DNA from: a virus
Taxonomy: Duplodnaviria > Caudoviricetes
Strand: one strand, 5' to 3'
IMG/VR virus record: IMGVR_UViG_3300025150_000002
Span: 128,001-192,000 of that record
Length of the DNA: 64,000 nt
Shown here: in pieces, positions 16,533 to 18,726 of the stretch
Layout: each line of letters opens with the position of its first letter
Numbering within the stretch: position 1 is the stretch's first letter
Made by a program: the position numbers and the translations under genes
The notes under the pieces: model-generated
The model's input: only the letters and a program-made list of their open reading frames with translations
Database searches by the model: none
What the model was told of the DNA's origin: nothing

Positions 16533-16859
16533 TTATCGGGACCGCCAGGCTGGTCTTGCGGTGATGACGTGTGACCGCCAGTTAACCGTGCTTCTAGGGA
16601 GACGACGGGCGCCGATAATACGACGGAGTTCGATAGCGTTGGTGAAGTGACCACCTCGAACCACGCAATCCAACAGATGGTCGAACTGGCACGACAGATA
16701 ACCGCCGTCCAACGACGGGCCGTGCACCAGGTCAAGTGTGTGGAGCTCGAATGCCCCTGACTCGTAGTCGATGAACCCTCGCGATGAGAACGTGACTAAC
16801 CCCTGAGTGATGAGATTACGCCAGCGAGCGAGATCGCCATGAAACCCGACATCCACCAT
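16533..16859 (-). CDS. Possible small ORF: prohead-protease-like fragment plus FGE-tail cassette
   Basis: ATG 16859 after GGGGAG; NLITQGLVTFSSRG...DLVHGPS then VVRGGHF...RPAWRSR*. Confidence 0.35.
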   Translation of the reverse strand: MVDVGFHGDLARWRNLITQGLVTFSSRGFIDYESGAFELHTLDLVHGPSLDGGYLSCQFDHLLDCVVRGGHFTNAIELRRIIGARRLPRSTVNWRSHVITARPAWRSR

Positions 16860-18726
16860 TATCCCAGGCTCCCCTGGCGGCTCGCCTGATGCCTGTCTCA
16901 GGACCCGACTCGAATCCCCAGGCACGTCCGCGCTGTTGTGCGTCGGGGGTGTATGGAAGATCTGAGGCGACGGCTGACGGCCAATAGGATCGGACGGACG
17001 GCATTGTGAACCAGGTGAATTCTCCGATGAGAGATCGGTTGGCCGGGGCGCGACCCTGTAGACATCTTGATTCTTGTTCAAGCATGGCCGCAGTAGCGGC
17101 TCGGATAAAGCTGTCGTCTCTGGAGAGGAGAGGGGTCCACTTCTCGACGAGGCTTGCGATGATGGAGTCGGGGTGAAGGTGGGCTGGAAAGATTGTGCTA
17201 AGTGCGGCACCTCCAGGCCGCCCTCGTTCCAATTCCGTCATCTGGCTCGTCGAACAGGCGCGGATCTCTGATGACGATACTGGCTGTGTCACAGGGCCAG
17301 CTGAGGCCTCGGACCGCGACTCTGACGCCACCGTTGTAGGCTCTGTGGATTCTGGCGAGCTCCCGCTCCCAGATTTCACGTGGGTAGATGCGACTGCTGT
17401 TGATGGGATGGATACAGGTGAACGGGCGGCTGATACGAAAGGGTGGTCACCTCGCTCTCCAGGCGGATCGGAGTCCACAATCTGTTGGTGCTGAGCTGAG
17501 CTGTTGCCAGATTCGTTCTGCGTGCCAGGGCACGTGGGGGTAGGACGGTCCTCTGATACAAGCTCCTGGATCTGAAGATCGTTCAGGAACACGGTCATCG
17601 TAGGGTCCGGGCAGACCTCGCCATGAGCGACGAACCCGCTCACCGGAGCACCAGACGTGTTCTCGGACCACATGCAGCGCGTCCACTCGAAGACATTGCC
17701 GCAGTTGTCGTGGAGGCCCCAGTTGTTGGGGTCCTTCAGACCAACAGCCTTGTGCCCCTCTTCCCAGTCTCCACCGAACCAGGCGATCTTCTCTAGATCA
17801 CTGTCGTTGTCTCCGTTCGGATAGCGAGTGGTCGTGCCAGCCCGTGCCGCGTATTCCCACATAGCCTCTGACGGGAGCTGAAAGCCGCACCTTTCACCCT
17901 TCGAGTTCCAGAGCCAGGACTGATACGCCTTCTCTACCGGCTCAGAGAAGATCAGCGCACCGAACTCGCTGATGTCCACCTCACCATCGCTACGACGTGT
18001 GATGGGACCAAAAGGCGTGAGGTCGGCGATTCCGAATTCGACATCAAGCCACCGCACGTAGTCGGATCGCTTGTCGCCCTTTCCCACCCGGAAGAGGGCG
18101 TTGAAGCGCCTCGCGAAGTCGATGCGATTGATCCAGTCCTCGACCTCGCGACACCGGTCCCAACTGACGGACTCGACAGGGTGGTCGCCCCAAAGCCGTT
18201 CATGATCGTCCGCTAGGTCCAGACGCACGGTGTCTGGAATTGATGGAACGCTTCGAGAGTCCTCTGATGTCGAGAACTCGGGGTGCAACTCCTCGACCAT
18301 TGCCCTGGTAGGGAAGTGGGATGGAAACTCACCCGTGACCCGATGCCACTCGCGGCCGGTCCACGGATATTTTGCCATCAAGAATGGCTCGTCGAAGACC
18401 CTCCGAACTGGAGCTGGAGGGTCCTCGTTTTCGTCTTCCTCATCGTCTTCGATGTCCTCGTCTTCGATGGATCGAGTAGGGCCCATCATGAACTCGCCGG
18501 CCGGGAGCAACACGAAGAGCATCCCGGTTGTCTTGTGACGAAACTCGGCAAGTCCCTGAGCATTCAGCCCCGCCGCCGAGTAGAGGGTCGTCTCCTCTAC
18601 TCGAAGGTGGTAGGGGATTTCGGCCCCAGACCGGCTAATTGCTGAGATCAGCTCTAGAAGATCATCGTGGGTTCTAGAGGAGTTGCTGTATCGGCGTTCT
18701 GCGTCGCGCAACCTGGCATCAGACAT
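16816..18726 (-). CDS. FGE-sulfatase (C-type lectin fold) domain protein with chimeric C-terminus
   Basis: LPAGEFMMG, HPVESVSW, LPSEAMWEYAARAG, KDPNNWGLHDNCGNVFEW; the canonical RGGSW...GFR tail is not adjacent in frame. Confidence 0.85.
   Translation of the reverse strand: MSDARLRDAERRYSNSSRTHDDLLELISAISRSGAEIPYHLRVEETTLYSAAGLNAQGLAEFRHKTTGMLFVLLPAGEFMMGPTRSIEDEDIEDDEEDENEDPPAPVRRVFDEPFLMAKYPWTGREWHRVTGEFPSHFPTRAMVEELHPEFSTSEDSRSVPSIPDTVRLDLADDHERLWGDHPVESVSWDRCREVEDWINRIDFARRFNALFRVGKGDKRSDYVRWLDVEFGIADLTPFGPITRRSDGEVDISEFGALIFSEPVEKAYQSWLWNSKGERCGFQLPSEAMWEYAARAGTTTRYPNGDNDSDLEKIAWFGGDWEEGHKAVGLKDPNNWGLHDNCGNVFEWTRCMWSENTSGAPVSGFVAHGEVCPDPTMTVFLNDLQIQELVSEDRPTPTCPGTQNESGNSSAQHQQIVDSDPPGERGDHPFVSAARSPVSIPSTAVASTHVKSGSGSSPESTEPTTVASESRSEASAGPVTQPVSSSEIRACSTSQMTELERGRPGGAALSTIFPAHLHPDSIIASLVEKWTPLLSRDDSFIRAATAAMLEQESRCLQGRAPANRSLIGEFTWFTMPSVRSYWPSAVASDLPYTPDAQQRGRAWGFESGPETGIRRAARGAWDNGGCRVSWRSRSLA

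Follow-up and report, generated by a model that had tools for sequence, protein, structure and literature searches.

A phage FGE gene with a truncated core and alternative C-terminal tails in other reading frames: a candidate for serial -1 frameshifting

We analysed a 64,000-nt stretch of DNA (hereafter the window) from the virus record IMGVR_UViG_3300025150_000002 of IMG/VR (Duplodnaviria; Caudoviricetes), corresponding to bases 128001-192000 of this linear record of 203,521 bp, which is about 89% complete. On the minus strand of the window lies a gene whose product has a core of the formylglycine-generating enzyme (FGE) type, a C-type-lectin-like fold. The C-terminal part of this fold is missing from the main reading frame (frame 0) and is found downstream as a series of tail cassettes, C1 to C4, which are distributed over the three frames. 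The features of the locus and the classes of junction between its cassettes are collected in Table 1.

Table 1. Features of the FGE locus and its surroundings (window coordinates), and classes of cassette junction in the related loci
Feature	Window position	Strand	Description
Frame-0 open reading frame (ORF), 636 aa	16816-18726	-	N-terminal helices, FGE core, read-through of C1 and C2 rich in serine, threonine and proline (S/T/P-rich), capsid-like segment, tail C3
FGE-sulfatase (C-type-lectin-like) core	17632-18516	-	aa 71-365; Pfam profile positions 5-205 of 255, E 8e-24
Candidate C1 entry, CGGACCCTAC	17600-17609	-	frame 0 P-D-P-T, -1 frame G-P-Y; C CCT tetramer only
C1, -1 frame	17447-17608	-	53 codons + TGA; pure FGE tail, 22.8 bits; orthologue of the first cassette of locus L016
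Candidate C2 entry, C CCT TTC	17437-17443	-	canonical heptamer in frame-0 register, 3 nt past the C1 stop; GGAG 13 nt upstream
C2, -1 frame	17198-17446	-	82 codons + TAG; protease-N-like segment, then FGE tail; 45.6 bits
Protease-N-like segment of C2	17333-17416	-	Smith-Waterman (SW) score 55 against the phage's own protease, z 7.6; genome-wide E 0.012
Frame-0 segment before C3, like the N-terminal part of the major capsid protein (MCP)	16987-17178	-	KWxPLL..MLExES.. motifs; SW 81, z 11, 0/500 shuffles
C3, frame 0, terminal	16816-16950	-	degenerate; ends SWRSRSLA + TAA; 6.6 bits
C4, within a +1-frame open stretch	16533-17237	-	234 codons; tail 16536-16670, stop 16533-16535; 17.4 bits
Structured region just 3' of the C4 stop	16440-16530	-	folding z -4.9, 0/200 shuffles
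HerA-like ATPase	18751-20424	-	directly precedes the FGE gene along the strand
Two helix-turn-helix (HTH) proteins	16090-16440, 15780-16103	-	next after the FGE gene along the strand
528-aa ORF, no Pfam match	14197-15783	-	after the HTH pair; short internal repeats ..TGNPLPVLGG / ..LATSCHRTGNQLPVV.. twice
DnaB-like helicase	10905-13532	-	intein with LAGLIDADG domain
ResIII helicase	6975-9734	-	intein splicing domain
Junction class 1, TAG CTC GGA CCC TAC			frame 0 S-S-D-P-T; -1 frame stop-L-G-P-Y
Junction class 2, TGA (C/T)TC GGA TTT TCC			frame 0 D-S-D-F-P; -1 frame stop-L/F-G-F-S
Junction class 3, TGA C.. CCC TTT (C/T/A)			frame 0 D-x-P-F; -1 frame stop-x-P-F; canonical X XXY YYZ in frame-0 register

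The core is identified by the FGE-sulfatase / SUMF1 profile (PF03781), with 85.1 bits for a cut-off of 23.3, and with 87.3 bits in a six-frame search of the genome. A complete PF03781 domain is not encoded in frame 0, since profile positions 206-255, the RGGSW...GFR tail, find no match there. An earlier examination of the same DNA (the sequence-only reading) had noticed that the FGE match ends before the tail and that the main frame stays open across C1 and C2. Both observations are borne out: the last ~50 profile positions are absent from the main frame, and reading of the frames gives no interruption over the two cassettes. The missing tails are found, with the family profile described below, in the -1 frame (C1 and C2) and in the +1 frame (C4). 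This part of the FGE/C-type-lectin fold (RGGSW...GFR) is the usual variable, ligand-binding region of proteins diversified by diversity-generating retroelements (DGRs). The cassette tails mostly hold one conserved Cys (RGGSW...CRSA.R), in the region where, we presume, the catalytic cysteine pair of true formylglycine-generating enzymes falls.

The coordinates, frames and closing stops that the sequence-only reading had given for the four tails are all confirmed, except that C1 starts further upstream, at the GPY of window position 17608. The +1-frame stretch crosses C3 as S/T/P-rich sequence, and C4 itself consists of a protease-C-like segment followed by a tail. We scored the tails with a profile derived from 78 cassettes, all taken from loci other than that of the window, and took as null 300 dinucleotide shuffles, whose per-replicate maximum had a mean of 5.6, a 95th percentile of 9.3 and a highest value of 13.0 bits. 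C1, C2 and C4 score far beyond chance. C3 falls within the range of the shuffles and is therefore not significant alone; its position, its SWRSR ending and its orthologues are what assigns it. Indeed, each of the four tails has a positional orthologue in other loci. A generic profile of the FGE tail, derived from 92 unrelated FGE proteins, detected none of the four segments, all scores being below 7 bits and within noise. The expectation that the segments outscore shuffled sequence against an FGE tail thus fails with the generic profile and holds with the family profile for C1, C2 and C4, not for C3. We consider the generic profile to be the wrong yardstick, as the tails of this family have diverged from the generic consensus. 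At the DNA level, the only repeats among the window cassettes, in 16400-17800, are of 12-19 nt and at chance level.

The organisation of the gene becomes clear from its relatives. A protein collection contains 11 close relatives, 44-58% identical over the core, and all of them consist of the core, an S/T/P-rich 'linker' of very variable length and a terminal ..RGGxW...G.R.AWRSR. We retrieved the DNA of the orthologues together with further loci and read all three forward frames, which gave 14 non-redundant loci. A single plan is common to 14/14 of them: the core is encoded in frame 0 and is followed by 2-14 tails in the -1 frame, by one tail that closes frame 0, and by none or one tail in the +1 frame. 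Each -1 ORF ends with ..G.R.AWRxR and an immediate stop, and has RG..W about 40 residues before that stop. The window has two -1 tails, the short orthologues have 3-4, loci L002, L003, L004, L006, L007 and L020 have 5-8, L015 and L023 have 10-11, and L016 and L017 have 14; an extra +1 tail beyond the frame-0 stop is found in the window and in L002, L015, L022 and L023. Comparison of the orthologous loci, which the sequence-only reading had proposed as a check, therefore reveals repeated out-of-frame tails in all 14 and not unrelated C-termini.

The cassettes are of two lengths. The short ones (45-55 codons) follow the scaffold GPY..RGG.W...A..CR.A..R....G.RPAWR.R, with variable positions in between, and the long ones (75-115 codons) have additional segments upstream of the tail, to which we return below. 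Cassettes of the C2 type share 38-49% identity over 8 loci, and eight of their residues (W, C, D, P, R, W, R and R) do not vary. Furthermore, the order of the cassettes is kept between diverged loci, the C2 type being followed by the capsid-N type and this by the protease-C type. In distant FGE loci, the canonical tails detected by the generic profile stand at least 600 nt apart, as separate domains and not as arrays, so that the array seems confined to the family of the window gene. No orthologue was found in the collection of deposited phages, where only partial FGE matches in Microcystis phages appeared; a scan of IMG/VR with a single protein gave no match, the loci being found by alignment-based scans.

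Both reading frames of the array are under constraint. Across the arrays of the 14 loci, not one of 7,520 frame-0 codons is a stop; on the basis of the +1-shifted frame of the cores, some 196 stops should occur. In the other two frames the stops number 163 (+1) and 131 (-1). Substitutions between related loci peak at frame-0 codon position 3 in the cores; in the arrays their maximum is at frame-0 position 2 (position 3 of the -1 frame) and their minimum at frame-0 position 1 (position 2 of the -1 frame). In the pair L004/L006, array substitutions amount to 125/570, 207/571 and 178/569 for the successive frame-0 positions (chi2 28.8, p 5.5e-7). This codon periodicity marks -1 as the frame that codes for protein in the array, with frame 0 maintained open, and shows purifying selection on the -1 frame. 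The -1 ORFs are uninterrupted over 45-115 codons, with up to 14 of them per locus, in the 14 loci. No ATG, GTG or TTG is present in 37/79 of them, and in only 10/79 does a start codon lie within the first 12 codons; given this scarcity, the cassettes cannot be independent genes.

Right after the -1 stops stand slip-prone motifs in frame-0 register, namely C CCT TTC, GGACCCTAC or GGATTTT, and the junctions can be sorted into three classes accordingly (Table 1). In classes 1 and 2 only the P-site tRNA can re-pair one base back (C CCU, U UUU). Among 71 junctions, an X XXY YYZ heptamer occurs within 36 nt of the -1 stop in 30, an X XXY tetramer only in 35, and neither in 6; these six mostly follow the last -1 cassette, with no further -1 cassette beyond. 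By register, the heptamers of the post-core regions are distributed 37:11:4. A GGAG is located ~11-16 nt upstream of each slip position, which is the spacing of the dnaX stimulator. On the 3' side, the 45 nt following the heptamer sites are more structured than control windows (mean z -1.27 vs -0.17, one-sided p 0.006), with z < -2 at 32% of the sites vs 8% of the controls, and strong hairpins start 4-8 nt past several heptamers, for example in L002, L003, L004 and L015. The 9-mer found at the C1 entry of the window opens the short cassettes in all related loci, and the 73 nt that run from this entry, an GGACCCTAC site, fold with -22.9 kcal/mol (z -2.35). As for the +1 frame, in five loci it opens 8-14 codons ahead of the conserved GAGCGGCCTGGAGGTGCCGC end of the C2-type cassette and remains open for more than 200 codons.

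The additional segments of the long cassettes resemble head proteins of the phage itself. The record, from an uncultured phage, carries T4-type head genes, including a major capsid protein of the Gp23 family (PF07068, 200.7 bits; G000:7488-8612, outside the window), which has no more than 35% identity with the capsid protein of any deposited phage. When the frame pieces of the arrays were compared by tblastn with the genome of the window, the FGE locus being masked, they matched the MCP with E values of 1e-5 to 1e-21 over its residues ~28-130, ~341-375 and ~402-462. Matches were also obtained with a vertex-like MCP paralogue, with the prohead protease-scaffold ORF and with the portal; in the protease the motifs concerned are the N-terminal ..GRIYP..RELDRL and the C-terminal ..GVSSRGLGS...FRLVAFDFV.DPAV. 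All four identified sources are prohead components. In Smith-Waterman comparisons with these four head proteins, about 30 of the 52 long cassettes, in which the head-protein segments stand upstream of the tail, reach z > 5 over shuffles. The most recurrent capsid segment (aa ~82-130 of the phage's own MCP) would correspond to the Gol region of T4 gp23, which Lit senses.

In the window, C1 is a plain tail with no head-protein segment, while C2 and the frame-0 stretch before C3 carry such segments (Table 1), and the orthologues of the frame-0 capsid-like segment match the MCP with E values of 1e-11 to 1e-21. The C4 segment is not significant against the C-terminal motif of the protease (z 1.3); its orthologous cassettes match it with E values of 3e-7 to 4e-4. 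A PHROGs scan of ten -1 ORFs of L016 returned no match, even for clear capsid fragments, since such fragments are too short for its profiles, so that direct comparison with the phage's own proteins is needed.

Two further observations concern these segments. In the L002 gene, a portal-like segment (..LLDRYADYEHMDAYSDLG.., nt ~1540-1650) is found in frame 0 with no in-frame tail after it, so that placement in a -1 cassette is not a universal rule for head-protein fragments. The second Gp23-family gene, the vertex-protein-like MCP paralogue, lies within the window (46214-46885, minus strand), far from the main head module at G000:7-12 kb, and some cassettes of related loci match it better than they match the MCP.

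Taken as a whole, the features of the sequence lead us to regard iterated programmed -1 frameshifting, giving nested isoforms with one core and different tails, as somewhat probable. A single mRNA would encode the FGE-fold core followed by a tandem series of alternative C-terminal modules, each able to complete the fold. A fraction of the ribosomes would slip by -1 at the motif located just past each -1 stop, either on C CCU UUC-type heptamers or on C CCU / U UUU single-tRNA sites within GGACCCUAC / GGAUUUU, would then read the next module and would terminate at its own stop. The ribosomes that do not slip would read the bypassed module as a disordered S/T/P-rich linker and proceed to the next site. 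In the protein, the tail would close the FGE fold, and the linker, with any head-protein segment, would be looped out beside the binding face. In the window, the predicted isoforms would end with C1, via GGACCCTAC, with C2, via CCCTTTC, with C3 when no shift occurs, and with C4 in the +1 frame. The sequence-only reading had seen in the locus an array of alternative C-termini selectable by frameshifting or recombination; of these, we favour frameshifting, more on account of the orthologous loci than of the window, and recombination is retained only as a rival.

Several observations weigh against frameshifting. As slippery sites of the two-tRNA type, the GGACCCTAC and GGATTTT junctions are noncanonical, downstream structure is not enriched at these two classes, and the conservation of their nucleotides could result from the dual-frame protein constraint alone (G-P-Y in the -1 frame, D-P-T in frame 0). 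The junctions could also be conserved for recombination instead of translation. In the window itself, the heptamer at the C2 entry has no downstream hairpin (z +1.05), the array is a reduced version, with four cassettes, of arrays with up to 14, and C3, the sole tail that can be reached without a shift, is missed by the tail profile. Finally, no conserved slippery motif was found in the five loci for the entry into the +1 frame that leads to C4.

Recombination would make of the locus a silent-cassette array comparable to vls or pilS, in which expression is limited to the tail at the end of frame 0, the cassettes in -1 serve as gene-conversion donors through the conserved junctions, and out-of-frame placement keeps the cassette stops from ending translation. 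The junctions flanking each cassette are indeed highly conserved and repeated within a locus (near-identical over ~30 nt in L016, for instance), the cassette periods are multiples of 3, so that swaps would preserve the frame, and the type of the terminal cassette varies between subgroups. We nevertheless judge this explanation unlikely. The conservation of cassette order in diverged loci argues against frequent shuffling, no DNA repeats are shared among the window cassettes, and the register-specific heptamers with their hairpins, the stop kept in each cassette and the -1 periodicity are left unexplained. A slightly lower probability is given to the view that the cassettes are fossils, tandem duplicates of the tail that drifted out of frame and are now inert, so that only the frame-0 protein is made. 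Inert copies should gain stops and indels, yet the -1 ORFs stay uninterrupted in 14 loci, show codon periodicity in their own frame and are 38-49% identical where the cores are ~57% identical. In favour of decay are the short and diverged array of the window, its degenerate C3, its heptamer site devoid of stimulatory structure, and the failure of the generic FGE profile to see the cassettes.

Synthesis of the cassettes as separate small proteins, through internal initiation, termination-reinitiation, or one -1 entry followed by leaky read-through of the stops, appears to us improbable, a little more so than the fossil. The cassettes would then either complete the tail-less core in trans or make up chains of several cassettes. 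This agrees with the strong Shine-Dalgarno-like GGAG / GAGGTGA present at every junction, with the C or T that follows most stops, which makes leaky contexts, with a +1-frame GTG inside GGAGGTG ahead of the C4 path, and with the complex model described below, in which a free C2 tail is placed on the core. It is contradicted by the start codons, absent from 37/79 of the -1 ORFs and near the 5' end in 10, and by the use of all three stop codons, and it creates no need for frame 0 to be open over thousands of codons. Least probable by far is that the gene is a DGR target or a relic of repeated retro-insertion, the cassettes being copies of a variable or template region. The variable positions between conserved scaffold residues do resemble DGR variation, but the differences are spread throughout and not confined to adenine-templated sites, the cassettes have stable orthologues across loci, and no long direct repeat links them. 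The absence of a reverse transcriptase that the sequence-only reading had recorded for the window holds for the whole 203.5-kb record, 89% complete, in which an RVT_1 search gave no match at E <= 10, and no template repeat near-identical to a variable region exists in 16400-17800, where the chance-level repeats mentioned above are the only ones. Without a reverse transcriptase or a template/variable pair, a DGR or retro-insertion origin is unsupported, and the suggested fossil of repeated retro-insertion is also at odds with the purifying selection on the -1 frame.

Other forms of recoding were considered and rejected. Bypassing of the T4 gene-60 type would need matching take-off and landing codons, and none are present; a change of code or recoding of a single stop codon does not agree with the use of all three; and the homopolymer runs, of just 3-6 nt, do not suit transcriptional slippage. 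A phage suppressor tRNA was likewise set aside, as the one sub-threshold tRNA-like gene detected (ARAGORN, Rfam) could give +1 and not -1 shifts and could not be linked to the array. This gene, at G000 complement 11762-11835 (L094 264-335), immediately precedes the gene for the prohead protease; its acceptor and T arms are good, its anticodon loop has 8 nt (CcUAACAA, with AAC or UAA as anticodon), and its Rfam score of 22.7 bits is under the gathering threshold of 29. An enlarged anticodon loop is a typical trait of hopping tRNAs and of +1 frameshift suppressors.

Structure prediction bears on whether a tail can close the core. A complex model of the window core (aa 60-372) with the -1-frame C2 tail scored 0.90, against 0.00 for the best of three controls; the mark used is reached by 58/80 solved complexes and by 2/110 mismatched pairs. 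The runs had at least 58% of their contacts in common, with a predicted local distance difference test score (pLDDT) for the partner of 80, 82 and 39 in the three runs, and the ~210 contacts between core and tail involve core strands around aa 115-118, 282-285 and 345-348. The model thus shows a C2 tail that would be FGE-like and compatible with the core, which is not evidence of association in the cell; core and tail both belong to a single known fold, and the high score may come from resemblance to FGE structures already solved. AlphaFold2 modelling of the 636-aa frame-0 product from a 12-row alignment gave a mean pLDDT of 54.8, with aa 291-366 and 397-636 below 50 and C3 undocked, and that of the short orthologue P0011, from 5 rows, a mean of 37; at such low values both models are too poor to judge whether an in-frame tail folds back across the linker.

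The region 3' of the array also has a bearing on what is transcribed. The structured region that follows the C4 stop comprises a terminator-like hairpin (16504-16525) and an inverted repeat with 14-nt arms (16452-16482), and nothing of the kind is seen after the frame-0 stop at 16816, which suggests a transcript extending across C4; the structured region is possibly the end of the transcription unit.

The FGE gene sits within the minus-strand replication module of the window (Table 1). Beyond the HTH pair and the 528-aa ORF, the latter having as counterpart in orthologous loci a ~500-aa gene kept 2-3 genes downstream of the FGE gene, the strand continues with, in order, an IstB/DnaC-like gene, DnaB with an intein, a primase, and the ResIII helicase with an intein. 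The same synteny is repeated around the closer orthologues. Apparent inteins were also noted outside the window, in the prohead protease-scaffold frame (959 aa, G000:8923-11799, minus strand) and in the portal frame (1582 aa, G000:97975-102720, minus strand), where the inserts start with CLGKGTPVLLADG.. and CLTGDTLIYVVDG.., respectively, each directly after a conserved motif. Together with the two in the window, the phage would hold at least four.

What the isoforms could do is a matter for speculation, in which the protein is seen, in essence, as a scaffold for binding. They might be binders or decoys for partners of conserved head proteins, these partners being either host sensors of capsid proteins or the head-assembly machinery. 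In an equally speculative scenario, a panel of isoforms expressed early and showing capsid, portal and protease segments would antagonise the sensors, or would bind or poison head-assembly intermediates. The complete proposal, a germline-encoded repertoire in which up to 14 serial -1 sites give many isoforms with peptides of the phage's own head proteins, acting as decoys or antagonists or as regulators or poisons of assembly, is tentative, and we hold it with clearly less confidence than the frameshifting itself. The embedded copies of conserved capsid, portal and prohead protease segments would represent a new kind of phage self-mimicry, which points to an interaction with host structural-protein sensors or with the head-assembly pathway. 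Even without frameshifting, the dual-frame architecture needs explaining, with no stop in any of the 7,520 bypass codons and with selection on the out-of-frame cassettes of 14 lineages. The annotation that gene callers now give to such genes is one long protein with a 'disordered linker'.

How does this array compare with known systems? The closest in terms of protein fold are the FGE-type targets of DGRs (Treponema TvpA, and Bordetella phage Mtd as the general C-type-lectin case), in which the same C-terminal region of the fold is variable. Here, the many versions of the tail on one scaffold are provided by up to 14 out-of-frame genomic cassettes and not by mutagenic reverse transcription. 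Since its short modules are FGE tails of variable sequence and nothing else, the array can be likened to DGR diversification in a hard-wired form. In terms of mechanism, it recalls lambda G/GT and dnaX by the in-register heptamer, the Shine-Dalgarno-like element about 11-13 nt upstream and a predicted downstream hairpin at many sites, and by a trans-frame product with a common N-terminus and a different C-terminus, which is here predicted from the sequence. However, these known cases have one site and two products, whereas the array has up to 14 serial sites, each giving access to another module, and two of its three junction classes are not canonical heptamers.

The shufflons (R64 Rci) and the Mu Gin / P1 Cin systems likewise associate a constant N-terminal part with adjacent alternative C-terminal segments. 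They switch by site-specific inversion of opposed segments with a recombinase, whereas the cassettes of the array have the same orientation and are separated by frame. No recombinase was found near the locus, whose neighbours are the HerA-like ATPase, HTH and replication genes, and the inverted repeats are short and at chance level. With a single cassette orientation and no adjacent recombinase, the array is not a shufflon-type switch. Borrelia vlsE/vls and Neisseria pilE/pilS present tandem variant cassettes, seemingly silent and with conserved flanks, beside an expressed copy; in the array, the cassettes lie inside the expressed ORF, each with its stop and slip motif, and their order is conserved between lineages.

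A last comparison is with phage proteins that block host sensors. DSAD1 blocks DSR2, a host sensor of a phage structural protein (PMC11087589). FGE domains themselves act as sensors in the STAND immune proteins of bacteria, and sensors of this kind detect structural proteins of the phage core set; Lit and CapRel sense motifs of the capsid, and Avs senses core phage proteins (bioRxiv 10.64898/2026.01.04.697583). What the long cassettes contain are the best conserved parts of capsid, portal and prohead protease, proteins of the kinds that bacterial sensors recognise. No described decoy is made of fragments of the phage's own head proteins, and the likeness is a lead only.

In our full-text search of the published literature, neither serial out-of-frame C-terminal cassettes nor head-protein fragments in an FGE protein were found described. 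Taken one by one, the parts are known, both the FGE fold whose tail varies and the signals for -1 frameshifting; the serial array and the self-mimicking inserts are not. If the frameshifting is true, the gene would be the first in which many recoding sites in series give alternative protein modules, and it would widen the range of bacterial slippery sites (the GGACCCUAC and GGAUUUU classes). It would also constitute a protein repertoire generated at the level of translation, where DGRs rely on a reverse transcriptase and shufflons and silent cassettes on DNA rearrangement.

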